Positions 6,001 through 36,395 of a DNA stretch of 64,000 nt are shown here, piece after piece. Numbering within the stretch: the first letter of the stretch is position 1; every line of letters starts with the position of its first letter. The position numbers and the translations under genes were made by a program. Source of the stretch: Patescibacteria group bacterium (GTDB lineage: Bacteria > Patescibacteriota > Patescibacteriia > 2-01-FULL-39-33). The stretch spans positions 359,156 to 423,155 of the forward strand of contig JBAZKF010000001.1 of assembly GCA_041650895.1 (NCBI GenBank). The letters are read 5' to 3'. The notes below the pieces were generated by a model, which saw nothing but the letters and a program-made list of their open reading frames with translations, was not told the DNA's origin and searched no databases.

Positions 6001-8251
6001 GAGCATAACTCGTCTGGTCTATAGCTTCTGAATATTGAAAACTGCAATAATTGCCTCCGGTGGTTTGATGAAAAACACAACCTTTGCCGGTAACATCCAA
6101 TTTGCACATATCCGAAGAACACGGCGAGGCTAAGCGCAAGCGGGAATTGGCGCTGACCTGGTGACCGGCCTGTATCCACCAATCCCTATCGCTTCTACTG
6201 AAAGTAATAACCTGATTGACGGCCTCGGGCGGAGTAAGTTGCGTACCACTACCCAGATTAGTCCAGGTCTGGCTGGAAGGATTATAATCTATGGCATACC
6301 AACGGCAACCAGCCACCTGCGCATTACAATTTCTAAAATCCAAAGTATTGGTTAAATAAGAGGAGGTACCGCCAGTACGCGAAGTATAGGTCTGACAGGA
6401 ATTAACTCTGGCCGGACAGGTTTTGCCTAAATCCCAAATGCGGCGCTCTTCATTGCAATAACCGTAAGCCAAGCAGGCGCCGTTTTCATCTTCTTGCAAA
6501 CATTGTTGCTCGTCAGAGCAGTATTCCAAACGGCCGATGGTTCCGCTTTGATCGTCTTTATTCAGATTTAAAGCGCCATACCCCTGGCGACGACAACTGG
6601 TTTCATACGCCTTAAGCGTCCAGTAGGGGTCAACCATGCCCTTAAAACTATTAGTGGTGCAACCGTTTTTGCCTAAACCCTCATAACAATTAATTAATTC
6701 ACCTAAAGTATATTCGCGATTACTATTAGAATTCCTGATAAGATTAGCGGCCTCTTCCCAACCCACCGGCACGATACGGTATTGACGTAAAACCAAAATA
6801 GAACGGTAAGGAATAGCTGTCTGTAAAGAATTTGACTGTTCTGATCGAGGCGAGAAAACACGATTCTTGATCTGATCAGGCAAATCAATCACATAAGTTT
6901 TGCTTTTAATCACTTGCGCCAAGGAACCATCAATAATACAATCCATTGGTCCGGGATTGGTCTTAGACGAATCATCGCAAGAAGAAAGTCCGACTATTAA
7001 ATCAACCTTCCCGCCTTGTTGACCTTGACTGCCGGAGATGGCATTATTGATTCTCTCTTCAGCTCCTTTAGTGCCTTCGGTTATTATCGGACTGGCCGAA
7101 GGATTAAACAAGGCAGTCAAAGCGCCGGAAAGTATGTTGGAACCTTGACTAGTCAAGGGATTGGAACTACCGCCGGAAGAACCGCCAGATGATGACTGTG
7201 TCAAAGAAAACAAGCCTTCTTTTAACAACCCCAATGATTCAGCCACAACTGTATCCATGAACTCAAATGGCACGGCCATGGCTGTTTCCGTCCAGGTAAT
7301 AGAATATTGGGAGTTACCCTTCTTCAACATAGCATCGGTCATCATGTCATGAAGCATGGTGCCAGGAGTAAGAATTTTACCGTTGAACGTCACCTTACTC
7401 AGCCAACCCTGATTGGTGCTGGCTTCATAGGTCTTAGACTTGACTTGCTGATTGACCGCCAAATCGCGCAAATCCAAAGCCAACAATGAAGCAGTAATGT
7501 CATTTTCCCCGGGCCGTAAAGCCAGAGTGTATTCCAAGGGGAAGGTAGGGTTAGTTACGGCCTCTTGCCAATTAGTCATGATCTCAGAAAAAGTACATCT
7601 GACGCGAGGAGCTGTTCGGCCCAGTTGAATATTGATCAACAACTGGACTTGCAAATCAGGCTGGCAAATATCCACGCCATAATGCTGACTAAAATTATCA
7701 ATAAAATCACCGAGAGCCGAGTCGGCGGCGTTAAGTAAATAAGCATTCCATCCCTCGGTAATATAAGCCGGTTTCTGACCCTTAAGCGCAGTAAAAGCAA
7801 TCTTGGTAGCTTCACGCGTAACACTTCTAAGTAAAGTATCCAACGCTTTAGAAGCGGAATTACTTAAGGCATTTAGAAACTTTTTCCATCTGTCTTGATT
7901 TTTTGCCTTTCTTACTTCCGCCTTTAAATCAGCTTCTATTTGTTGCCCCGTACTATTATCAGAAACATATTTATTGCAGACGGTTTGAGCTTCAGCCAAA
8001 GCGCTTAATTTTGCGCTACAATCATAAAAGCCACAAGGGATGGCGGTTGCCGCCTTTTTTAACGCTTCACACATAGCCAAAGCCTGTTTAGCGGGAAGTC
8101 CAGCTTCAGCCTGACTCAAGGCTGTCTTTGCTTCGCCTAGTTGGGTCTCAAAAGCCGTCGCCGGATCTTGAGCTGAAACGCGTAATGGACAAAAAAAGTA
8201 AAAACAACAAAAAATTACCCCCAATAAGATCATTGGGTTATAAAGCTTCAT
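1..8251 (-). CDS. Giant secreted/cell-surface protein, Cys-rich, more than 2,750 aa; 5' end in window and 3' end beyond the left edge (partial)
   Basis: The ATG is at 8249-8251 (reverse strand) and the N-terminus reads MKLYNPMILLGVIFCCFYFF..., a signal-peptide/TM-like stretch. The minus-strand frame with top position ≡1 mod 3 has no stop in several spot-checked segments (1-61, 1501-1560, 3001-3058, 4202-4231, 6002-6058, 7502-7558) or in a manual read-through. The ORF track lists no complete ORF longer than 130 aa across these 8.2 kb, as expected for an ORF whose stop lies outside the window. Plus-strand ORFs here are short and antisense. Confidence 0.65.
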   Translation of the reverse strand, partial: MKLYNPMILLGVIFCCFYFFCPLRVSAQDPATAFETQLGEAKTALSQAEAGLPAKQALAMCEALKKAATAIPCGFYDCSAKLSALAEAQTVCNKYVSDNSTGQQIEADLKAEVRKAKNQDRWKKFLNALSNSASKALDTLLRSVTREATKIAFTALKGQKPAYITEGWNAYLLNAADSALGDFIDNFSQHYGVDICQPDLQVQLLINIQLGRTAPRVRCTFSEIMTNWQEAVTNPTFPLEYTLALRPGENDITASLLALDLRDLAVNQQVKSKTYEASTNQGWLSKVTFNGKILTPGTMLHDMMTDAMLKKGNSQYSITWTETAMAVPFEFMDTVVAESLGLLKEGLFSLTQSSSGGSSGGSSNPLTSQGSNILSGALTALFNPSASPIITEGTKGAEERINNAISGSQGQQGGKVDLIVGLSSCDDSSKTNPGPMDCIIDGSLAQVIKSKTYVIDLPDQIKNRVFSPRSEQSNSLQTAIPYRSILVLRQYRIVPVGWEEAANLIRNSNSNREYTLGELINCYEGLGKNGCTTNSFKGMVDPYWTLKAYETSCRRQGYGALNLNKDDQSGTIGRLEYCSDEQQCLQEDENGACLAYGYCNEERRIWDLGKTCPARVNSCQTYTSRTGGTSSYLTNTLDFRNCNAQVAGCRWYAIDYNPSSQTWTNLGSGTQLTPPEAVNQVITFSRSDRDWWIQAGHQVSANSRLRLASPCSSDMCKLDVTGKGCVFHQTTGGNYCSFQYSEAIDQTSYAPRDPSCNVPDNGVSCQLRLCNDAKLFPDVYTAEVANKPNLGLEGLLNSQEGWKAASWTLAFIDNNNRHLRVTTEKHSGVASLFIKTLYAPADLISYEPAIPVEKNTNYNVRFYYKGSINGSVNVEVRAGSKGATSFDQDSSLWPSLLNNLQLTSGSSGWRETNLNFNSGDNEQIILVVRNPAGVYADLYLDDFEFYPISTACGVGAVSVLVSSREGATEMYFDRDAQTCSSLSDGCSQFIRTKSNLGGNVVINGGFDGTLYDWSNLILADNTRAKISYLSGLDSANINKTIQVTPGQYYFLAIDGYQISVDQATLIETFLRFKSKAGAVLPVATSSATCEWAQDKDGNIPQTLALKFTPTSFATSSRFFCKFKAPDNAARMELWFSTGATGQEAIIDNVKTEAISFNATYPSIYSDYNPAARSVEQVAYLKKAPDYFSCYDAYPDIAGLQWPQNQQELTSVLKNKNANCARYAGVCTPQEVGCELYRPVNGDPSIPGVAQDFDACPKECAGYQLYNQEKTSFINQAFRQFIADSKLKTCSANYAGCDEFTNLDTAGQGGEQKEYYSQIQACQKPSVDDGAYYTWEGSDITGYQLVAFSLKKSQVASDPETAGVGQGTAPCTNLIYNASGNAVCNDSANTHGAEAGRYDFGVCTKDDMVSNPDCRELYDVDGNIHYRLLSRTVSVSNNCHPYRRTMTETSFTEAKANCESHSGWWNGSNECIYMAIPGQGKICPANAQGCRAYTGNRGNNIKNAINVVNFTASSTALDLWEDANGGRNGLFISSESTFPGGNSLSNKVNNPTIHYPITIQKNKAYTLSFWAKGNASYYLDNIRFVEKSGINWNDNSAANGNNYFSASRLLGENLINPRTQLTEEWKRYELGPLFVTWEPGDGNYLEFSMPNGQVVYLDNIILKEITNQVYAIENSWFTPLSCDNKLDDPDGNKAKTEGVCQDTQSGRCSIGEMLGCAGYLDRKNKVSYLRSFASLCRPEAAGCEALIDTFNSSAPQAQSFNIANSVNHDDIFVATDTLVYLVNYDKYSCAKGDKGCTRYGLPLIDKWDEITGYRDIYVKNDPDRYSTDLCSAENLWCEEWAGNNTLIYFKDPHGKVCQFTSSDSSNGLDKWFKSGTVETCPTTYQQTLGLSYKSATDKLQPLGPINAVTLQAPSSPAYSGWVGACSTEQSGCSEYIDPLENLASNLIPQRCEGQDTCVDVSIKKNILYVLSDNIKVGDIICSDVQGVSNSFSDNLGHYLYLAVDNPKSLTCRVTFKTQDGSSIDLVRDKVGLASVSYILSSKVSSGDCNGQVDYHKGCVLFNDRSQLDYSNLINSATTSLSFSSRLTRDNNYPQGINGLSRSVPPAAVTEAGKPKDANIILKSQPNRACANWLTCSTFEKKEEGQSSTLAPYFFSDQDSCLEVGACNSLGDNGICNNYLANDAVSSDQYSPSLDANKSGFSRVGYYSFDAMTQVGQSSNVVNGNFEEAFGATTQPLGWRLAVYYCASNSDCAAGNPDVVYKNWQASYTTIGRDGAKAKDGVGYLKINSGWGVISESVDILPNQDYFLSAWVHTKDLQGPGVAGRLPYAELRLRFINSKGQPRPNLAAVDGGVYEGDWVKGEVMQTPTGLPWKQVIVHFRTGDNVSGVQLALFNMNPDGSKGIDNSKLGGYTLWDNVNLKPLLKSSASGYIDRTCRVYPSMNAPACKYNDGNNYFYGQYGYCLTPDPANNQQCLQWWPVDSIRGETLSDFSSYYSERYPLYYCLEKKTMILDVSQYTGNFGLFGEGVNESGMESLKFDTNAKQTKATSFNISPTWSPLFRYPFIYKFQFDGIFIAIGDTASHTLFGGVLSVGMWKNLVCAKPLGIIPLPICYVPSGNGLITTSDGTGVTTPAQEEVQSWVQGNTNGRVCEYSVLATLNDSSYGGGLKSCQCDSADEADSSTCRSASNCSNTIAAFSSNNNCITADLAENYAQSIKDYTYLCEITAEPCSCESGAVNCEDSAHCSNPGTNKCA

Positions 8252-22773: not shown

Positions 22774-22845
<72 letters not shown>

Positions 22846-22934
22846 CTAACCAATCACTGATTAATAATTACTAATTACGAATATAATTATTTTAATTCGT
22901 AATTTGAAATCCGTAATTTGTAATTGACATTTGT

Positions 22935-23007
22935 TGCGGGGGGCGGATTCGAACCGCCGACCTCTTGGTTATGAGCCAAGCGAGCTGCCGGACTGCTCTA
23001 CCCCGCG
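22935..23007 (-). tRNA. tRNA with CAU anticodon and a C1·A72 mismatch (initiator-like tRNA-fMet)
   Basis: Reverse complement reads CGCGGGGTAGAGCAGTCCGGCAGCTCGCTTGGCTCATAACCAAGAGGTCGGCGGTTCGAATCCGCCCCCCGCA. The acceptor stem 5' C pairs against 3' A, as in bacterial initiator tRNA. Confidence 0.7.
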
Positions 23008-23052
23008 ATAATATTTTATTTTCCATCTCTCCCTAAATAGATGAGATTGATG

Positions 23053-23134
23053 TGCCCGAGGAGAGACTCGAACTCTCACATATTGCTATACACGATTTTG
23101 AGTCGTGCGCGTCTACCAGTTCCGCCACTCGGGC
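23053..23134 (-). tRNA. tRNA-Leu (CAA), type II with long variable arm
   Basis: Reverse complement reads GCCCGAGTGGCGGAACTGGTAGACGCGCACGACTCAAAATCGTGTATAGCAATATGTGAGAGTTCGAGTCTCTCCTCGGGCA. Confidence 0.8.
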
Positions 23135-26191: not shown

Positions 26192-26252
26192 AGAATCACG
26201 ACGAGAGAGGTTCTCTAAGGGTTTCGTCCCGACGAGAGCCTTTTTCATTTGT
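26192..26252 (+). ncRNA. Candidate small RNA (about 60 nt) driven by the orphan promoter, with nested stem-loops and a 3' T-run
   Basis: acgatagaatcacGACGAgagaggttctctaagggttTCGTCccgacgagagcctttttc: imperfect hairpins followed by TTTTT. Confidence 0.3.
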
Positions 26253-26781
26253 GTTTATTTTTATACTCCAACTTACCCTTCAAAGCATTTAAAAAAATCA
26301 AAATATTATTTGCCGAGGAACTTAAGCGATCCAAAAGACAAGAATAATTATTTTGATTCGGAATTAACACTCTCTTGAGTTTTGAGTTATTAATTAGATA
26401 TTCTACCAAACAATAAAAATCACCATCACCGGAAACAATAATGGCCTTATCATAATTAGAATATTCAATCATGGCGTGCAATACCAATTCGGCATCTACG
26501 TTACCCTTAACTGTGCCATCAGCTAATTCCAGTGTCGGTTTAAATACGCAAATATAGCCATACTCCTGTAATTTTGTATACATCGCTTGATTACCGGGTT
26601 TAAAGCCGATGAATAGGAAGGCCTTTTCAATGCCATATTTATCTTTAAGATAAATCCTGAATCTTCTATAATCAAGCTGCCAGCCGGAATAAATCTTCCG
26701 GTCTTTTTTATAAATGTCTTTTGACAAGCTTTGATATAAATTATTGCTGTCAATAAAAGCGTAGTTTTTTCCTTGTGGCAT
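26245..26781 (-). CDS. NYN-domain (LabA/DUF88, PIN-like) putative RNase, immediately downstream of the DGR RT on the same strand
   Basis: NYN hallmarks YAFIDSNNLY…, KAIIVSGDGDF; 178 aa. Confidence 0.65.
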   Translation of the reverse strand: MPQGKNYAFIDSNNLYQSLSKDIYKKDRKIYSGWQLDYRRFRIYLKDKYGIEKAFLFIGFKPGNQAMYTKLQEYGYICVFKPTLELADGTVKGNVDAELVLHAMIEYSNYDKAIIVSGDGDFYCLVEYLINNSKLKRVLIPNQNNYSCLLDRLSSSANNILIFLNALKGKLEYKNKHK

Positions 26782-26801
26782 ATTATTTTATATAGATAAT
26801 C

Positions 26802-27788
26802 TTAGCAAGTATAAGCCAAATTAGCAATTTTTCGTTGTAATTTATAGCTCTGGCCGTGACTCAATAAACCCAAATATGAATTCATGGTTTCCGGGTTATG
26901 ATTTTTCCTCACTCGCCTGAACATCCTTCTTTTACTCGCCGTCCGAAACACCCGATGATCAAAAAAATTCACCCAACCCAGAAAGTCTAAGCCGGGACTT
27001 AAAGTTTTGATAAATAGCTTATCGGGATGAAGCGTCAGTTTCATTTTATCTCTCAAATAAGCATCAACCGATGGAATTATTTTTTCCAAATAATTTTTAT
27101 CATCAGCCATAATCACGAAGTCATCGGCATAGCGGATATAATATTTTACTTTCAGTTTATGCTTAACAAATTGATCAAATCTGTTCATATAAATATTAAC
27201 CAATAACTGCGAAGTTAAATTCCCCAACGGCAAACCTCCGTTAAAACTGTCAATCGCCTCGTCTAATAAACCCAAAATCTTTTTATCCGGAATATACTCG
27301 GCCAGGATATTTTCCAATATCCCATGATCGATATTGGCAAAAAATTTCCTGATGTCACCCTTTAAAATCCAACAAGTGTGGGTGTTATTCTGGCTGGCTT
27401 TGTAAGCAAATTTCTTGAATCTGGCCAAGGCCTTATGCGTGCCCTTGCCCAGCCGGCAGGAATAAGAATCGACGATGAAAGTCCGGTCAAAAAACGGATA
27501 CAAAATCCGATAAATCGCATGATGAACCAACCTATCACTGACCGACGCCTTATGGATTTGCCGCGACTTGGGATCGCAGATCTTAAAGGCCTGGTAGCCG
27601 CCATGGCGATAAGCGCCGGTTGCCAAATCCCGATGCAATGCGATAAGATTATCCATAAGGCGCAATTGGAATTCCTGCACGTCTTTTCTATTCCTTTTGC
27701 CCCTGACAAACTCCTGCCAAGCCAACAATAAATTATCAAGACAGATAATCTCTTCAAAAGTATGGCTCAACTTGATTTTCCCGTTCAT
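26802..27788 (-). CDS. Diversity-generating retroelement (DGR) reverse transcriptase
   Basis: RT domains with a YADD catalytic box (YIRYADDFVIM) and motif 4 LPLGNLTSQLLVNIYM (the DGR-specific xGxxxSQ, not the QGxxSP of group II/retron RTs). 328 aa, no maturase or endonuclease domain. Adjacent TR/VR pairs are present. Confidence 0.9.
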   Translation of the reverse strand: MNGKIKLSHTFEEIICLDNLLLAWQEFVRGKRNRKDVQEFQLRLMDNLIALHRDLATGAYRHGGYQAFKICDPKSRQIHKASVSDRLVHHAIYRILYPFFDRTFIVDSYSCRLGKGTHKALARFKKFAYKASQNNTHTCWILKGDIRKFFANIDHGILENILAEYIPDKKILGLLDEAIDSFNGGLPLGNLTSQLLVNIYMNRFDQFVKHKLKVKYYIRYADDFVIMADDKNYLEKIIPSVDAYLRDKMKLTLHPDKLFIKTLSPGLDFLGWVNFFDHRVFRTASKRRMFRRVRKNHNPETMNSYLGLLSHGQSYKLQRKIANLAYTC

Positions 27789-27815
27789 AATGATTCCTTT
27801 AATTTACCCCCCCCC

Positions 27816-27825
27816 CAACGGAAAA
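27816..27825. repeat. C10 homopolymeric tract between the divergent RT and avd1 genes
   Basis: cccccccccc in an AT-rich intergenic/5' region; a candidate slipped-strand phase-variation site. Confidence 0.6.
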
Positions 27826-27834
27826 TTTATCCCG

Positions 27835-28140
27835 TTGATTCAAAAAACCAAAACGCTATACATAGTATGGCATGGTTACTACCAATCTCTACCCAAAACC
27901 CATAAATACTCATTGGGTCAAAAAATCGACATCTTCTTTATTGAGGCGATTGAAGCTATGGCTACCGCCAGTTTCCTGCCACCACAAGCCAAACCGCCTC
28001 ATATCTGCCTAGCAATTCAAAAAATTGATTTGATAAAAATCATGCTAATGATTCTATGGGAGATAAAGGCGATTGATAATAATAAGTATTTAAATCTATC
28101 GCAACCACTAGACGAAATCGGCCGGATGCTAGGCGGCTAG
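27835..28140 (+). CDS. Avd-like four-helix-bundle (23S rRNA IVS protein family) accessory protein, copy 1 (start uncertain; no in-frame ATG until 27958)
   Basis: The C-terminus …LWEIKAIDNNKYLNLSQPLDEIGRMLGG matches the Avd/four-helix-bundle family C-terminal helix (…EIGkmLggW). It is paralogous to copy 2 with synonymous third-position differences in this frame. It is on the strand opposite to the RT and TR. Confidence 0.45.
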   Translation: MIQKTKTLYIVWHGYYQSLPKTHKYSLGQKIDIFFIEAIEAMATASFLPPQAKPPHICLAIQKIDLIKIMLMILWEIKAIDNNKYLNLSQPLDEIGRMLGG

Positions 28141-28149
28141 TACAACAAA

Positions 28150-28185
28150 CTGACAAAACAAAACTCCCCGGATAAACTCAGGGAG
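28150..28185 (-). terminator. Hairpin CTCCC-N12-GGGGAG plus T-run immediately 3' of TR1 (minus sense): DGR RNA 3' structure or terminator
   Basis: Minus-sense sequence …cgcaac tctctttatttttCTCCCtgagtttatccGGGGAGttttgtttt. The same element follows TR2. Confidence 0.5.
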
Positions 28186-28199
28186 AAAAATAAAGAGAG

Positions 28200-28320
28200 T
28201 TGCGGAGCGCAGCCGGATTATCGACGTTGAAGTCGTTATCAAGCCAGTTGTAGTTCCAGTTCCATCTGTCGCCATTCCAGTACAGGTAACGCACATACAG
28301 GTTGTCGTCCGAGTTGCGAT
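28200..28320 (-). repeat. DGR template repeat TR1 (cognate to VR1 at 28702-28822)
   Basis: 121-nt match to VR1. All 20 mismatches fall on TR adenines in the minus sense (TR AAC, GAC, TAC, AAT or AGA codons against G, D, C, R or F codons in the VR). Minus-sense TR1 encodes …RNSDDNLYVRYLYWNGDRWNWNYNWLDNDFNVDNPAALRN. Confidence 0.9.
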
Positions 28321-28576
28321 TTTCGCAAAATTCCGCCTAAACCACCATCCGTTGATCCGCCGACTGGCGGAATCTCCAGATTGAATCTTATGCGTGAGCT
28401 AAACTCACATAGAACATTGCGCCAAGTATCTTTACTTTAATTAGGCATTAATATATTACGCTACTACTGACATTGATCAGTAATATTCTGAATAATACTA
28501 ACACCGGCTGAGGTAGCGGATAGCCGTAACCAACCGCGGATTTACCTGTGGCTATTTACATAATAGCAGAATAATT

Positions 28577-28619
28577 TGAAAAAATAAATCCTGCACAAGT
28601 CAGATGACCGATGCAGGAT
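28577..28619 (-). terminator. Intrinsic terminator of target gene 1 (hairpin atcctgca…tgcaggat plus T-run on the minus strand)
   Basis: An 8-bp perfect stem followed by TTATTTTTT in the minus sense. Confidence 0.6.
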
Positions 28620-28697
28620 ATTTTGTACAAAATTTAGGGCTAAGGACTAAAGTTTAAAATTTCAAGAACTGAAAATCAAAATTCTAAGTCCAAAGGA

Positions 28698-29255
28698 CTA
28701 CTTGCGGAGCGCAGCCGGATCACCGACGCCGAAGCCGCCATCAAGCCAGCCGTAGCCCCAGTCCCATCCGCCGCCACCCCAGCACAGGTAACGCACAAAC
28801 AGGCGGTCGTCCGAGTCGCGATAAATAGTCCCCCAAAAGAAAATACATTTGCCTTTCCATTCTTCCGGAATCAACTCGAGATGTGCGAGTAAATAGTCAA
28901 GAACATTAGCGTTCAAGACCAGCTTGCCGGCCAACAACTTACGCAAAGCGTGACCTTTGACGATGTTATTCTTCTGGTCATTGGCCAGATAAAGCTCAAT
29001 CAATGCCGGATTCCACTCCAGTTGACCGCCCTTCTGGTGTTCTTCAACTTTCCAGCCGGACGGAACGAAAGGATGAACGTCGCAGTCAATAATGTACTTG
29101 GTCACGATGATTTCCGCCAAGCCATGCAGCACTTTCTTGAATTCCGCCAAACTCTTAAACTGCTGGAGCTTCGTCATCTCCTCCGGCGTATAACCAGCAG
29201 CTTCAAAAGCATCCATTACCTTGTTGGCTTGGCCTACCGAGTAAAGCGTGGACAT
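28698..29255 (-). CDS. DGR target (variable) protein 1; C-terminal VR at 28702-28822
   Basis: Probable start MSTLYSVGQ… with RBS AGGAGA; the track ORF extends to 29285 via GTG. The C-terminus …FVRYLCWGGGGWDWGYGWLDGGFGVGDPAALRK differs from the TR1-encoded peptide only at Asn/adenine-containing codons. It is paralogous to target 2 (shared core …VLDYL…IPEEWK…FFWGTI…). Confidence 0.85.
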   Translation of the reverse strand: MSTLYSVGQANKVMDAFEAAGYTPEEMTKLQQFKSLAEFKKVLHGLAEIIVTKYIIDCDVHPFVPSGWKVEEHQKGGQLEWNPALIELYLANDQKNNIVKGHALRKLLAGKLVLNANVLDYLLAHLELIPEEWKGKCIFFWGTIYRDSDDRLFVRYLCWGGGGWDWGYGWLDGGFGVGDPAALRK

Positions 29256-29338: not shown

Positions 29339-29367
29339 CAATATATTAAGTATAGCACGTATTATAT
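29339..29367 (-). promoter_or_regulatory. Promoter of target gene 1: TTGACA-17-TATACT (minus strand), with a TTTATCCAC motif just upstream
   Basis: Reverse complement reads TTGACAaaatatataatacgtgcTATACT. Confidence 0.5.
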
Positions 29368-29455
29368 ATTTTGTCAATAGATTTATCCACTCTACCAACT
29401 AACTAATTATTTTTATCTAAATTTAAACAAAAAATCACCACTATCTATTGGGATA

Positions 29456-29701
29456 ATGGAAGCAATTGCCACGGCCAGTTTCCTGGACAAACTGAGTAAG
29501 TCGCCGTATGTGGAAACAGCGATCAGAAAAACTGATATTTTAAAAATATTATTATTACTTTTGTGGGAGACAAAATCATTAGATAATAATAAATATTTGG
29601 CCTTATCAATTAAGATTGATGAGGTGGGCAAAATGCTTGGCGGCTGGAAAGGACAATTACTAAGTAAAAACTCCCCCGACAATAAAGCGGGAGAGAAATG
29701 A
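29456..29701 (+). CDS. Avd-like four-helix-bundle accessory protein, copy 2 (81 aa)
   Basis: MEAIATASFL…LWETKSLDNNKYLALSIKIDEVGKMLGGW…; resembles the BPP-1 Avd C-terminus (…EVGRILGSW…). A 40-nt upstream element (aaatttaaacaaaaaatcacc…ttgggataATG) is shared with a truncated third copy at 31508-31556. Confidence 0.5.
   Translation: MEAIATASFLDKLSKSPYVETAIRKTDILKILLLLLWETKSLDNNKYLALSIKIDEVGKMLGGWKGQLLSKNSPDNKAGEK
29663..29695 (-). terminator. Hairpin CTCTCCCGC-N-GGGGGAG plus T-run immediately 3' of TR2 (minus sense), homologous to the element after TR1
   Basis: Minus-sense sequence …gcaactcacttcatttCTCTCCCgctttattgtcGGGGGAGttttta. Confidence 0.5.
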
Positions 29702-29707
29702 AGTGAG

Positions 29708-29829
29708 TTGCGAGAACCGCAGCCGGATTATCGACGTTGAAGTCGTTATCAAGCCAGTTATAGTTCTCATTCCACTGGCTGTCGTTCCAATACAAGTAAC
29801 GGACGTAGAGGTTGCCATCAGAGTTGCGG
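29708..29829 (-). repeat. DGR template repeat TR2 (cognate to VR2 at 30184-30305)
   Basis: 122 nt, with no indels against VR2. The minus-sense sequence encodes RNSDGNLYVRYLYWNDSQWNENYNWLDNDFNVDNPAAVLA against the VR2 peptide RRSDGRLYVRCLFWSGSQWRGCYSWLDSGFVGGSPAAVLA. Most mismatches fall at TR adenines, and four non-adenine mismatches cluster at the 3' end (IMH/IMH*-like). Confidence 0.85.
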
Positions 29830-30065
29830 TTGTATGTGGCGCGCCGCCGATATCACTGCCCGTCGAATACTCTCTGGGCTGGATCTTATTTGTGATCTTA
29901 AATCACTTAGCGCTCCGCACCAAGTATCTTCATTTTTGAAGTTTCTACAGGCGCCACACTGCCTGAAGCCTTGACCGCAGGCATTCTCGGCGACTGGACA
30001 CTGGATTCGGTGGCAAGCAGCCATAACCGCTTGCTGATATTCACCTAATACCTTTTTTATTTTAG

Positions 30066-30101
30066 CATAAAAAATAATCCCGAACCATTGCTGATTCGGG
30101 A
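30066..30101 (-). terminator. Intrinsic terminator of target gene 2 (ttcccgaa…ttcggga plus T-run)
   Basis: A 7-bp stem followed by TTATTTTTT in the minus sense. Confidence 0.6.
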
Positions 30102-30169
30102 ATATGTTCAAAAAAATTGCATTAAGGTCAAATTTCCCAAGGATCCATATAGATCCAGGAAATCAAGAC

Positions 30170-30847
30170 CTAAGCGCTGATACTTGCGAGAACCGCAGCG
30201 GGGCTGCCGCCGACGAAGCCGCTATCAAGCCAGCTATAGCACCCACGCCACTGGCTGCCGCTCCAAAACAAGCAACGGACGTAGAGGCGGCCATCAGAGC
30301 GGCGGAAAATTGTGCCCCAGAAAAAGATAAAGATAATATTTCCTTTTTCATTTTTTTCCTTCCACTCTTCGGGGATGTACTCCTGATTGGCCCTAAGAAA
30401 GTCCAGAACGCTTGCCGACAACACCGGCCGGCCGTCAAGTTCTTTACGTAGTTCATGGCCGACAATAAATCGACCGTTAACCTGGAGCGTTGAGCGATAC
30501 AAAACGACTTTCTGTCCGTCAATGTATAAACCGTCAAATCTCTTTTCAATTGAAATCTTGCCCTGGCGGGCATGTTTCTCAACTGTTGCGTCAGTAAATG
30601 GCGGTCGCGGATCATTGTCCGTATCAATTACCGCCCGAAGGATCGGCGTTGTCTGGCGCAGAAATTCCTCGCCGATTTCCTTGAGTTTCTCAACAAAAAA
30701 ACTCTTGCCCGGACCAGTCGCCCAATCAATCACTTCGGCGCCGACCTTGATTTTCTTCAGAGTTGCGGCTATCAGCGAGAATAGATTGGCGAGCGCCGCC
30801 ACAAACTGCCCGACTTCCTTCCAATTCAAACTCTTTTTCGTCGACAT
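30170..30847 (-). CDS. DGR target (variable) protein 2; C-terminal VR at 30184-30305
   Basis: 225 aa; paralogous to target 1, and its C-terminus matches the TR2 product apart from differences at Asn codons. Confidence 0.85.
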   Translation of the reverse strand: MSTKKSLNWKEVGQFVAALANLFSLIAATLKKIKVGAEVIDWATGPGKSFFVEKLKEIGEEFLRQTTPILRAVIDTDNDPRPPFTDATVEKHARQGKISIEKRFDGLYIDGQKVVLYRSTLQVNGRFIVGHELRKELDGRPVLSASVLDFLRANQEYIPEEWKEKNEKGNIIFIFFWGTIFRRSDGRLYVRCLFWSGSQWRGCYSWLDSGFVGGSPAAVLASISA

Positions 30848-31098: not shown

Positions 31099-31431
31099 TT
31101 ATTTACTCTGCAGACATGGTAACGCCGAAAGCCATTTATCAAATTTCCTATAAATCCGCCCCAAAAACCTGTTCCATTTTTTCTCACCATAAAAATCTAT
31201 GTACCTTTGCCTAAATTCAAGAAAAGACACTCTGGGAGCTAACCGTGGAACTCCAATCATCGCCTTGATCCTATTGGGATATTCTTTGATAAATCTCCTG
31301 GGGAATCGTTGGTGAATAAAAGCAATCGTATACGGGTCATCATCATGATTGCCCAATAACGGAACCACGAGCCTTTCATAAAGATCTTGACCATGCAACC
31401 CAATAAATTCAGACTTACTCATTACGTCCAT
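31099..31431 (-). CDS. Hypothetical 110-aa protein with its own TTGACA-17-TATGCT promoter and GGAGG RBS
   Basis: Has an ORF, an RBS and a promoter at 31450-31480 (reverse complement). The ORF shows no similarity to the DGR targets. Confidence 0.45.
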   Translation of the reverse strand: MDVMSKSEFIGLHGQDLYERLVVPLLGNHDDDPYTIAFIHQRFPRRFIKEYPNRIKAMIGVPRLAPRVSFLEFRQRYIDFYGEKKWNRFLGRIYRKFDKWLSALPCLQSK

Positions 31432-31580
31432 GACGCCCTCCTTTGTTTTTATTGTTTCTTAGAAAGCATAGACGACTTTAGAAAAAATGTCAATAATTTT
31501 GTTACTATTCAAATTTAAACAAAAAATCACCGCTATCTTTTGGGATAATGATGATTTTTAGTCAATCTCTGATTTTATAA

Positions 31581-35455: not shown

Positions 35456-35905
35456 ATGTCGGTGATCACCAAAAACAAAGAAGGCTTGTTCGGTTATGAG
35501 ATTATTGACACCTGGCGAGCCGGCATTGTTCTGTCCGGTCCGGAAGTTAAGGCGGTTAAGTTGGGACAAATCAGCCTGAAAGGAAGTTTTGTTCAAATTG
35601 ACAATAAAAACGAAGCTTGGATAGTTAATTGCCATATCAGCCCCTATAAACCGGCTAAAGGCCACCAAAACGGCTATAACCCCGATAAAAGCCGTAAACT
35701 CCTCCTAAACAAAAAAGAAATCGCCTCAATTATAGGCAAAAAAGCCCAAAAGGGGTTGACAATTATCCCCATTTCGGTATATACTTATAAAAGACTAATC
35801 AAGGTGGAAATCGGACTGGCCCGCAGCCGAACCAAGGTAGACAAGCGAGAGGTCGTCAAAAAACGAGAGCAAGAACGGGAGATAGAAAGAACGTTGAAAA
35901 AGTAA
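35456..35905 (+). CDS. smpB: SsrA-binding protein SmpB
   Basis: …GYEIIDTWRAGIVLSGPEVKAVK…; 149 aa. Confidence 0.85.
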   Translation: MSVITKNKEGLFGYEIIDTWRAGIVLSGPEVKAVKLGQISLKGSFVQIDNKNEAWIVNCHISPYKPAKGHQNGYNPDKSRKLLLNKKEIASIIGKKAQKGLTIIPISVYTYKRLIKVEIGLARSRTKVDKREVVKKREQEREIERTLKK

Positions 35906-36007: not shown

Positions 36008-36395
36008 GGGGATGTTTTGCTTTGATAGAGATAATGTTTTCCTATTAGCAAACCGAGCATGGCGGCAAACTCGTTAATCCGTCGCCACAGGCAAAAATGC
36101 CAAAAACATCTTAGCTAAAGTCCAATCTGCTTTTAGCAGCCTGGCTTTGGCTCCTGTTCTCGCTTAATATCGAGAACCATCGCCGCGCCCATTCCCGGTA
36201 AGCGCTAAGCGGTGTTATATTATCGGGATCGCCACTGACGTCGCCAGAGCGCCCTTGGTCAAACTTTTCTGGATCGCTTAAGGATTTTTTGCCGCTTTTT
36301 CAGTCCTTAAGTCAGAATATAAAACGGCTAAGTTTGTATCACTTTAGGGGATAATTTATTTCTAGACAGGGGCTCATTACCCCTCATCTCCACAC
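36008..36395 (+). ncRNA. ssrA: Candidate tmRNA (ssrA) downstream of smpB
   Basis: The 5' GGGGATG pairs with the 3' CATCTCC, followed by a discriminator A (acceptor stem). An internal ORF …AKNILAKVQSAFSSLALAPVLA ends with TAA inside the loop of the hairpin gttctcg-cttaatat-cgagaac. A T-arm-like GGGG-ctcatta-CCCC lies just before the 3' end. The length, about 388 nt, is typical. The region is a 575-nt non-coding gap. Confidence 0.45.

Follow-up and report, generated by a model that had tools for sequence, protein, structure and literature searches.

The window, i.e. the whole 64-kb stretch of Patescibacteria DNA that was analysed, contains a reverse transcriptase (RT) gene, genes for the accessory variability determinant (avd), and two target genes with their template (TR) and variable (VR) repeats, see Table 1. 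These are the parts expected of a diversity-generating retroelement (DGR), in which a reverse transcriptase alters the end of one small protein at positions encoded with adenine. Across the whole window, a scan for this repeat family detects four members only, namely TR1, VR1, TR2 and VR2. In total, the locus has two tandem TR/VR cassettes, one RT and one complete avd. Cassette 1 is about 2.5 kb long and has the order target(VR1) - TR1 - (avd, opposite strand) - RT.

Table 1. Features of the two cassettes, with coordinates as positions in the window; P0 to P3 are the helices and hairpins of the RNA around each TR.
Feature	Coordinates	Strand	Remarks
DGR reverse transcriptase, 328 aa	26802..27788	-	Pfam RVT_1 E 1e-22; PHROG reverse transcriptase E 1e-102
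avd1, accessory variability determinant	27790..28140	+	between TR1 and RT, head to head with the RT start codon
GC-rich hairpin and T-run after TR1	28154..28185	-	hairpin 28164-28185, T-run 28154-28163; from the terminator scan
TR1 RNA, P0 3' strand	28188..28196	-	TCTTTATTT; begins 4 nt past TR1, pairs with 28429-28437, helix brackets the TR
TR1, template repeat	28200..28320	-	non-coding donor; rich in A (33 in total), with AAC at 7 codons of the VR frame
TR1 RNA, structured 5' domain, ~115 nt	28323..28437	-
TR1 RNA, P1	28411-28422 (5' strand); 28323-28334 (3' strand)	-
TR1 RNA, P3 hairpin	28347-28381	-
TR1 RNA, P2 hairpin	28394-28408	-
TR1 RNA, P0 5' strand	28429-28437	-
Terminator-like hairpin and T-run	28588..28619	-	~80 nt past VR1; read from the sequence
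Candidate target-side hairpin/cruciform	28687..28699	-	AGTCC-TTT-GGACT, short (5 bp); 3 nt past the VR1 end, overlaps the stop codon; read from the sequence
Target gene 1, 185 aa + stop	28698..29255	-	ATG start at 29255, preceded by AGGAG; VR1 is its 3' end
VR1, variable repeat	28702..28822	-	final 40 codons (146-185) of target gene 1
Promoter-like site ahead of target gene 1	29349..29377	-	TTGACA-17-TATACT, TG before the second hexamer; 11/12 matches
avd2, N-terminally truncated Avd remnant	29390..29701	+	beside TR2; first ATG 29456; no adjoining RT
TR2 RNA	29662..29935	-	flanking structure as that of TR1
TR2 RNA, 3' hairpin and T-run	29671-29695; 29662-29670	-
TR2 RNA, P0	29927-29935 (5' strand); 29696-29704 (3' strand)	-
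TR2, template repeat	29708..29829	-	122-nt match to VR2
TR2 RNA, P1	29909-29920 (5' strand); 29834-29845 (3' strand)	-
TR2 RNA, P3 hairpin	29858-29879	-
TR2 RNA, P2 hairpin	29892-29906	-
Target gene 2, 225 aa	30170..30847	-	42% identical to target 1; VR2 is 30184-30305

Genes of cassette 1

The RT reading frame is intact. Its top PDB match is 8ub7_A, a 328-aa chain (E 4e-40; group II intron RTs reach 4e-19), and aligned to this chain it shows both the DGR-typical motif LGNLTSQ (LGxxxSQ/GxxxSQ) and the catalytic YADD (YxDD). We take chain 8ub7 to be the DGR RT (bRT) of Bordetella phage BPP-1; a literature search for the PDB code 8UB7 found no paper naming it. The avd1 product matches NCBIfam DivGenRetAVD (E 9e-14, 51.7 bits, curated cut-off 80), Pfam bAvd (E 4e-8, 34 bits, cut-off 40) and the PHROG "Avd protein of DGR" (E 1e-9). 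These scores are significant by E-value, yet they lie under the curated Pfam and NCBIfam cut-offs. The gene spans positions 2-101 of the 104-position NCBIfam profile and ends at a TAG where its homologues have TGG and about 18 further residues.

The DGRs of CPR/Patescibacteria were reportedly first surveyed by Paul et al. in 2017. With TR and RT on one strand, the TR upstream, and with avd between them on the other strand, cassette 1 has the B3 architecture, "TR-(avd)-RT", found in 90% of the CPR DGRs (Wu et al. 2018, PMC5758913). The inverted avd was also considered as a possible novelty, which we rejected because it is part of this published architecture. The CPR DGRs make up clade 2 of Roux et al. 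2021, and their targets have no recognisable domains (PMC8144416).

More than 1150 small Patescibacteria proteins, all without annotation, make up the family of target 1. In alignment A2 the N-terminal 140 aa are conserved, while the VR codons are hypervariable. The protein has no match in Pfam, NCBIfam or PHROG, and it is small and lacks a recognisable domain, signal peptide or membrane segment. Its AF2 model has a pLDDT of 93.6, and Foldseek finds nothing significant for this fold in PDB and BFVD. An identical 185-aa protein (P0001) is present in an NCBI Patescibacteria MAG. The protein cluster of target 1 has this one member, hence no near-identical VR variants are on record.

Two hairpins follow VR1. 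The first, a candidate target-side hairpin, has counterparts in comparable short palindromes after the VRs of relatives; such an element downstream of the VR is not universal, being found in 34% of DGRs (Wu et al., PMC5758913). The second, terminator-like hairpin was missed by the automatic terminator scan because its loop exceeds 8 nt. It probably ends the mRNA of target 1, and the TR RNA would then be a separate transcript.

Substitutions between template and target

Read on the minus strand, TR1 (28320 to 28200) and VR1 (28822 to 28702) align over 121 nt without gaps, and the homology ends at these bases on both sides. The original prediction had placed the repeats at exactly these coordinates and had put the number of differences at about 20, each of them at a TR adenine. 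The exact count is 21, and all 21 are indeed at TR adenines (19 A>G, 1 A>C and 1 A>T). Expressed per site, 21 of the 33 adenines are altered against none of the 88 other bases, and the chance of all 21 differences falling on the 33 A positions is 2e-15 (hypergeometric). As none of the changes is on T, G or C, an even spread over the four TR bases is absent from the substitution spectrum.

The changes are restricted to codon positions 1 or 2, and the TR1 adenines are distributed over codon positions 1, 2 and 3 as 10:19:1. The in-frame translation of TR1 is RNSDDNLYVRYLYWNGDRWNWNYNWLDNDFNVDNPAALR and that of VR1 is RDSDDRLFVRYLCWGGGGWDWGYGWLDGGFGVGDPAALR (followed by K and the stop). These translations are as originally predicted; Cys, however, derives from Tyr (TAC>TGC) and not, as had been proposed, from Asn. 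The further residue changes are Asp>Gly, Arg>Gly and Tyr>Phe. Up to 20 codons are variable (7 AAC, 4 GAC, 3 TAC, 2 AAT, 2 GAT, 1 TAT and 1 AGA), from which about 1e17 protein variants are theoretically reachable, whereas the Trp, Leu, Arg and Val scaffold codons of the VR are adenine-free. No ORF of at least 60 aa was found over TR1.

The final 17 nt of the repeat, from CCGGCTGCGCTCCGC on, are GC-rich, adenine-free before the closing AA and the same in TR1 and VR1. The repeats part directly after CGCAA, with G in the VR and C in the TR. [quoted passage not shown] In 9 of 29 cassettes, A-type mismatches occur close to the terminus, 2-5 nt from the end of homology. This is weak evidence for a cDNA start outside the TR; these mismatches may be fixed differences, because the same positions and the same base recur.

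Cassette 1 has relatives at 27 GTDB loci. At these loci the RT is preceded, on its own strand, by the VR at a distance of about 1 kb and by the TR at about 0.4-0.5 kb, and avd is inverted between TR and RT in all relatives with sufficient flank. Over the 27 loci, 455 mismatches are at A sites and 8 elsewhere. A>C and A>T together make up 40% of the 455 changes at A sites; A>G accounts for 60% in the clade against 90% in VR1, a surplus that could be due to selection or chance.

An ortholog of cassette 1 (L159/L160), about 87% identical at the nucleotide level, was compared with it. At 8 of 8 sites where the two TRs differ, each VR matches its own TR. The two VRs have no differences at 82 shared non-A sites, while 13 of 31 shared A sites differ. 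The comparison shows that transfer from TR to VR went on after the two lineages split, and cassette 1 looks recently active.

Cassette 2 has 24 mismatches between TR2 and VR2, of which TR adenines account for 20 and other bases for 4. Two cognate TR/VR pairs at one locus were found at none of the 27 related genomic loci with a TR/VR pair.

Cassette 1 very probably represents the functional core of a DGR of the Patescibacteria (CPR) type that resides on the chromosome. The DGR signature, originally read from the repeats, is supported by the adjoining RT and Avd genes, by the position of VR1 at the 3' end of the target, by the relatives and by the ortholog. The DGR belongs to a type that is already known and common in Patescibacteria.

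It is unlikely, although not negligibly so, that this real DGR is now a fossil, i.e. that it was once active and VR1 has since been frozen, for example by the shortened avd1 or by lost expression. Such a fate would fit the single VR1 allele in the public protein collection, the early TAG of avd1 through which the relatives read, and the signs of decay in the neighbouring cassette 2, namely its four non-A mismatches and truncated avd2. It would also fit the metagenomes, where an exact 26-mer from the P3 insert of cassette 1, used to seek other VR1 alleles, matched no contigs. Against it stand the 88 non-A sites without a mismatch, the intact RT with its catalytic YADD, the nearly full coverage of the Avd profile by avd1, the helices of the cassette 1 RNA, which are all intact, and the fact that the VR followed changes of the TR after the split from the ortholog.

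The idea that the repeats are ordinary paralogous or duplicated DNA, changed by neutral drift or transition-biased mutation without reverse transcription, has almost no probability left and is effectively refuted. The 19 A>G transitions would agree with it, but drift is expected on both strands and at third codon positions, whereas here all changes are on the adenines of one strand. The frequent A>C and A>T changes in the clade, the RT and Avd genes that adjoin in every relative, and an ortholog unchanged at the 82 shared non-A sites while the surrounding DNA is 13% diverged also speak against it. That an adenosine deaminase, by A-to-I editing or by deamination of DNA, changed the target gene in place of an error-prone RT is just as improbable: such an enzyme would explain the A>G excess of VR1, but no deaminase gene was seen among the ORFs beside the cassette, A>C and A>T changes, here and in relatives, cannot be obtained by deamination, and both the copying of each TR's non-A changes into its VR and the retention of a non-coding A-rich copy with a conserved RNA scaffold would be left unexplained.

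The RNA scaffold around the template repeat

The TR lies in a conserved RNA structure. When RNAalifold was run on the concatenated flanks, the resulting structure was messy, yet it hinted at P0, which was then defined by hand and tested. The P0 helix is 88% paired, with compensatory changes in 7 of its 9 pairs. Over the RNA flanks of set A5, 94% of cells are paired against 77% in shuffles (compensatory changes in 26 of 33 pairs), and in the independent set A6 the values are 97.2% against 82.4% (19 of 24 pairs).

The hairpin and T-run after the TR are present in 28 of 29 clade TRs, with differing stem sequences. In the MAFFT alignment 3' of the TR the hairpin arms are out of register, and the hairpin was therefore scored per sequence and excluded from the covariation counts. 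Probably the TR RNA terminates at this hairpin, which by its position corresponds to the Avd-binding stem-loop of phage DGR RNA. A consensus scan detected no promoter for the TR RNA, and by eye no segment of the 5' domain pairs consistently with the TR 3' end itself in the style of the BPP-1 primer duplex.

None of the RT-associated motifs of Rfam 15 (RT-1 to RT-19, among them RT-10 of DGRs) reaches its gathering score, either at the locus in the window or at 11 loci related to it. A match to RT-7 upstream of the RNA domain was disregarded (26.6 bits against a gathering score of 116.8, and not reproduced). We found no description of the TR-flanking structure in the accessible DGR literature, and the published survey of DGR RNA elements would miss most of the scaffold, because only 40 nt upstream of the TR were examined. 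Used alone as a query, the RNA motif finds at least 119 metagenome contigs. Where the flank is long enough, these contigs contain an RT (69/78), an inverted avd (92/98) and an A-specific TR/VR pair (81/87).

Proposed mechanism and comparison with known systems

Mostly from the DGR of Bordetella phage BPP-1, we infer the enzymology, the RNA ends, the priming site and the present-day activity of the DGR at cassette 1. A small non-coding RNA would be made from the minus strand, roughly from 28450 to 28154. It would consist of the structured 5' domain, TR1, a 9-nt strand base-paired with the 5' end, and a hairpin with a U-run. RT and Avd would bind this RNA, and TR1 would be copied to cDNA with random bases opposite adenines. 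In the target gene, VR1 would then be exchanged for this cDNA; the GC-rich 3' end common to both repeats, which is free of A, would guide the exchange, probably together with the small hairpin past VR1. As an outcome, up to 20 codons in the C-terminal sheet of a cytoplasm-like protein would be re-randomised, and the adenine-free scaffold codons would remain fixed.

Among known systems, the CPR/Patescibacteria B3 DGRs (PMC5758913, PMC8144416) have the same order, target(VR)-TR-(avd inverted)-RT, and are likewise hosted by a Patescibacteria chromosome, with adenine-specific mismatches and small targets that lack a domain, signal peptide or membrane segment. Unlike them, the present locus has two cassettes for one RT and one complete avd. 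The prototype BPP-1 DGR (mtd-avd-TR-brt) shares the homologous RT and Avd, the VR at the target 3' end, A-to-N mutagenesis concentrated in AAC codons, the GC-rich A-free repeat end and the hairpin downstream of the VR. It differs from the present DGR, in which avd is inverted and placed between TR and RT, the element resides on a chromosome and not on a phage, and the target is a 185-aa protein and not a tail-fibre tip. Further, the conserved RNA structure here is mostly 5' and not 3' of the TR, and a terminator about 45 nt past the TR seems to mark the end of the RNA. The DGR variable proteins of C-type-lectin fold (Mtd 1yu0, TvpA 2y3c and TaqVP 5vf4) also count among the closest known systems.

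In BPP-1 the TR-RT spacer is the Rfam motif RT-10 (PMC5737381), and in the cryo-EM structure of bRT-Avd-RNA the Avd-binding stem-loop comes directly after the TR (10.1101/2023.10.23.563531). The RNA of cassette 1 resembles this RNA in the stem-loop right after the TR, in a duplex of about 12 bp just upstream of the TR (in BPP-1 the cPRT Stop), and in a strand that pairs at the TR 3' end (in BPP-1 the primer strand). The order of elements is also the same: primer-like strand, stop strand, short stem-loop, conserved adenosines, single strand and long stem-loop. However, in the CPR clade this block is 5' of the TR, the partner of P0 is just outside the TR and not inside it, and there is no sequence or covariance-model similarity. 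It is thus from topology only that the two blocks may be regarded as functionally equivalent.

From this comparison it can be speculated, with somewhat less than even confidence, that the Patescibacteria B3 DGRs use a circularly permuted DGR RNA, in which the block that is 3' of the TR in BPP-1 has come to lie 5' of it. The permuted block would hold (i) the primer strand, (ii) a strand of the stop duplex, (iii) the short stem-loop with its adenosines, (iv) a single-stranded "thumb ring" and (v) the RT-binding stem-loop. P0 would then be the template:primer duplex, with priming from the terminal adenosine at 28429, and P1 would be the stop duplex at which the cDNA ends, at the 5' edge of the TR. 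The hairpin after the TR would be the Avd-binding site and an intrinsic terminator at once, and the terminator would stop the TR transcript from running antisense through avd. As the TR2 RNA keeps the scaffold beside a truncated avd and without an RT, the one RT and Avd of the locus would act on it in trans.

Taken as a DGR, the locus is nothing unusual: Patescibacteria are enriched in DGRs, and both the architecture and the kind of target are already catalogued. The value of cassette 1 is that of a clean and compact example, small in its target and free of non-adenine mismatches, and the comparison with its ortholog catches a template still overwriting its target after the lineages diverged. 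A side result may perhaps be weightier: the TR is set in a strongly covarying RNA scaffold that matches no Rfam model, and this motif is a simple sequence marker for finding Patescibacteria-type DGRs in metagenomes. If the scaffold is a permuted form of the phage DGR RNA, it would offer a second, independent arrangement in which RT priming, stopping and template restriction could be tested.

Template and variable repeats and genes of cassette 1

On the minus strand, the template repeat TR1 and the variable repeat VR1 form an ungapped alignment of 121 nt, and the repeat ends in the original prediction are the exact limits of this homology. The alignment contains 21 differences (19 A>G, one A>C and one A>T). 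Changes are found at 21 of the 33 adenines of TR1 and at none of its 88 other bases, and the chance that 21 random differences would all fall on the adenine positions is 2e-15. The substitution spectrum thus bears out the claim that the differences are confined to TR1 adenines (21/21). Translated in the ORF frame, TR1 reads RNSDDNLYVRYLYWNGDRWNWNYNWLDNDFNVDNPAALR and VR1 RDSDDRLFVRYLCWGGGGWDWGYGWLDGGFGVGDPAALR. TR1 has seven AAC codons, and its adenines are distributed 10:19:1 over codon positions 1, 2 and 3. The predicted residue changes were found as listed, except that Cys comes from Tyr (TAC>TGC) and not from Asn.

The closest solved structure to the reverse transcriptase (RT) is chain 8ub7_A (E 4e-40), with the LGNLTSQ and YADD motifs aligned; the match to group II intron RTs has an E-value of 4e-19. 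We take 8ub7 to be bRT, the RT of the Bordetella phage BPP-1. The accessory variability determinant, avd1, has matches in Pfam (bAvd, E 4e-8), NCBIfam (DivGenRetAVD, E 9e-14) and PHROGs (E 1e-9 for "Avd protein of DGR"); its Pfam and NCBIfam scores fall under the curated cut-offs. The start codons of RT (ATG 27788, minus) and avd1 (ATG 27790, plus) lie head to head, 1 nt apart (27786-27792), and are equally tight or overlapping in relatives. As this leaves no intergenic room for promoters, these would lie within the partner genes, or RT would be expressed by read-through of the TR terminator.

Features of the two cassettes (window numbering)
Feature	Position	Strand	Remarks
TR1	28320->28200	minus	
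VR1	28822->28702	minus	last 40 codons of target gene 1
Target gene 1	28698-29255	minus	185 aa; ATG with AGGAG ahead
Promoter-like site, target gene 1	29377-29349	minus	TTGACA-17-TATACT
avd1	27790-28140	plus	3' of TR1 in TR sense; matches Avd in three libraries
RT	26802-27788	minus	328 aa; RVT_1 E 1e-22; beyond avd1
TR2	29829->29708 (29708-29829)	minus	1.5 kb from cassette 1
VR2	30305->30184 (30184-30305)	minus	end of target 2
Target 2	30170-30847	minus	225-aa paralogue, 42% identical to target 1
avd2	29390-29701	plus	beside TR2; N-terminally truncated, first ATG 29456
Third avd fragment	~31497-31550	plus	~16 codons; just after glycyl-tRNA synthetase gene
Direct repeat	29407-29458 and 31499-31550		52 bp, 87% identical; flanks cassette 2
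Block shared by TR1 and TR2	28207-28248 (TR1) and 29717-29758 (TR2)	minus	42 nt, AACTGGCTTGATAACGACTTCAACGTCGATAATCCGGCTGCG, 100% identical; coordinates counted from printed sequences
Post-TR hairpin (T-run follows), TR1	28185-28164	minus	
Post-TR hairpin (T-run follows), TR2	29695-29671	minus	
Structured RNA	28154-28437 (TR1) and 29662-29935 (TR2)	minus	helices P0-P3 and terminator-like hairpin

The nearby genes for glycyl-tRNA synthetase, SmpB, tmRNA and tRNAs place the element on a cellular chromosome. The context is an ordinary one, with the tmRNA gene (36008-36395, plus) directly 3' of smpB (35456-35905, plus) and a cluster of three tRNA genes (22774-23134, minus). A protein identical to target 1 is recorded on a 957,791-bp contig of a MAG that NCBI lists as "Patescibacteria group bacterium".

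The family of target 1 has more than 1150 proteins, about 185-190 aa long; its named members are all from Patescibacteria, and no member has a Pfam annotation. Conservation is good over the first 140 residues when 47 members are aligned. The VR segment keeps a scaffold of W, L, R, V and F but is hypervariable where the TR codons carry adenines.

Relatives and signs of recent activity

With the RT as query, 38 loci were found among GTDB species representatives, each in a CPR-type (Patescibacteria) MAG. In 27 loci with sufficient flank, an unbiased scan for adenine-specific repeat pairs places both repeats upstream of RT and on its strand, TR at a distance of about 0.4-0.5 kb and VR at about 1 kb; avd is found between TR and RT, on the opposite strand, in every relative with sufficient flank. 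Of the mismatches in the 27 pairs, 455 fall on TR adenines (60% are A>G, 24% A>T and 16% A>C) and eight on other bases. The layout of cassette 1 and its relatives is architecture B3, "TR-(avd)-RT", which makes up 90% of the CPR set of Wu et al. (PMC5758913). The inverted avd, considered as a novelty, was therefore rejected as such, the arrangement being already published. Roux et al. place Patescibacteria DGRs (diversity-generating retroelements) in clade 2, whose targets are without recognisable domains (PMC8144416). The element is a standard Patescibacteria DGR.

Some loci vary on this plan. In the relative L002 (JBAZRV010000004.1), compared with window 26245-29255, the NYN-domain neighbour is 96% identical and the RT 83%, but homology of its DGR target to target 1 is undetectable, which indicates that the target or the cassette has been replaced between close relatives. 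Another locus (L005, 4386-4497 and 5058-5184) has one TR and two VRs, and a third (L021) has an extra adenine-specific repeat pair (2119-2206 and 7032-7119), with a TR-like copy downstream of RT. The 3' flanks of the VRs, in the relatives and in the window (28620-28700, 30100-30183), contain short palindromes with T-rich loops, e.g. GGATC-TTTTG-GATCC, and CTTGG, CTTAA and CTTTG motifs about 10 nt apart; both may be target-site recognition elements.

No other VR1 allele of the same strain is on record in the protein cluster or in the metagenome contigs searched. The closest homologue of target 1 (P0002, 79% amino acid identity) belongs to a cassette collinear with cassette 1 at about 87% DNA identity over 2.6 kb (L159, L160). 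Its TR equals TR1 at 113 of 121 positions, and its VR departs from that TR at 18 positions, every one an adenine. The two TRs differ at eight sites, five of which are non-A in both, and at each of the eight the VRs have the base of their own TR. Between the two VRs there are 13 differences at the 31 shared adenine sites and none at the 82 where both TRs have the same non-A base, so the predicted restriction of variability to TR adenines also holds between lineages. TR information was thus still passed on to VR once the two lineages had split, and the variation keeps to adenine sites. This is good comparative evidence that the element has been active recently. The original observation and its reading of the pair as a DGR are both correct.

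The second cassette

Beyond the catalogued DGRs, the element has a tandem second cassette without enzyme genes of its own, and a well-supported RNA scaffold around TR. No RT lies beside TR2, only the truncated avd2. The avd remnants and the 52-bp repeat around cassette 2 suggest duplication, and the array seems to have expanded in this way with breakpoints inside avd. The duplicated unit also holds a 110-aa ORF (31099-31431, minus) upstream of target 2, with no match in Pfam, NCBIfam or PHROGs.

TR2 and VR2 differ at 24 sites, 20 of them TR adenines and four other bases. All four non-A mismatches fall within the 42-nt block identical in TR1 and TR2, the surroundings of which are only about 75% identical. 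The simplest reading of these sequences suggests that TR1 converted the 3' part of TR2 when VR2 had already received its last homing; cassette 2 would then not have been rewritten since the conversion.

The stop of avd1 (TAG, 28138-28140) is replaced by TGG (Trp) in avd2, whose frame continues for about 18 codons through the TR terminator hairpin; this tail is also covered by matches in several relatives. One stretch of DNA thus encodes the Avd tail on one strand and the RNA hairpin on the other.

RNA structure around the template repeat

A conserved domain of about 115 nt lies 5' of TR. It consists of P1, a long-range helix of 12 bp with a 3' strand that stops a few nt short of TR; P2, a hairpin enclosed by P1; a conserved single strand, (G/A)AATAAGATTCA; and P3, a hairpin whose loop, GAGAGTATTCAA, is conserved. 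In addition, nine nt about 120 nt upstream of TR, AAATGAAGA, pair with TCTTCATTT, starting 3-4 nt after TR, to form the helix P0, which encloses TR. Over 25 sequences, 94% of cells are standard pairs, a level that none of 500 shuffles attains (77% after shuffling), and compensatory changes occur in 26 of 33 pairs, including seven of nine in P0. Sliding the 3' partners by 1-3 columns leaves 37-55% paired.

Metagenomes were scanned independently for two conserved unpaired segments alone (GAAGATACTTGG and, 38-58 nt further on, GAGAGTATTC). At least 119 contigs carry this signature, where chance would give about one match on a rough hand estimate. Among the matches listed, and counting contigs with sufficient flank, RT lies downstream on the same strand in 69 of 78, avd on the opposite strand in 92 of 98, and an adenine-specific TR/VR pair is present in 81 of 87, with VR 419-556 nt upstream and one at 1406 nt. 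For P1-P3, the 103 distinct sequences among the matches listed are 97.2% paired against 82.4% when shuffled, with compensatory changes in 19 of 24 pairs. The RNA has no Rfam match at the gathering score, either in the window or in 11 relatives. An earlier published survey of DGR RNA elements covered 40 nt upstream of TR, so most of the 5' domain was beyond its view.

The sequences show the parts list, the adenine-only transfer pattern and the conserved RNA scaffold. By analogy with BPP-1, RT and Avd would bind the TR RNA and copy it, misincorporating at adenines, and the cDNA would substitute for VR1. The RNA of the BPP-1 RNP, as described from cryo-EM, starts with the primer strand, a 2-nt linker and the stop-duplex strand, followed by a short stem-loop, two adenosines, the single-stranded thumb ring and the long bRT-binding stem-loop (10.1101/2023.10.23.563531). 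Here the order is similarly P0 5' strand, 6-nt linker, P1 5' strand, P2, A-rich single strand and P3, and in both systems the stop-duplex partner (here the P1 3' strand) is just upstream of TR. However, the whole block is 5' of TR here and 3' in BPP-1. From this order we tentatively propose, at somewhat less than even chances, that the TR RNA is a circularly permuted DGR RNA, in which P0 would serve as template:primer duplex and P1 as stop duplex.

Finally, 28 of 29 clade TRs are followed after 6-16 nt by a GC-rich hairpin of 7-12 bp and at once by a T-run, the stems differing in sequence. By position it matches the "Avd-binding stem-loop just downstream of TR" reported in 207 of 278 DGRs (10.1101/2023.10.23.563531). 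Read in the TR sense, the hairpin resembles an intrinsic terminator, which would halt the TR transcript before antisense passage through avd.
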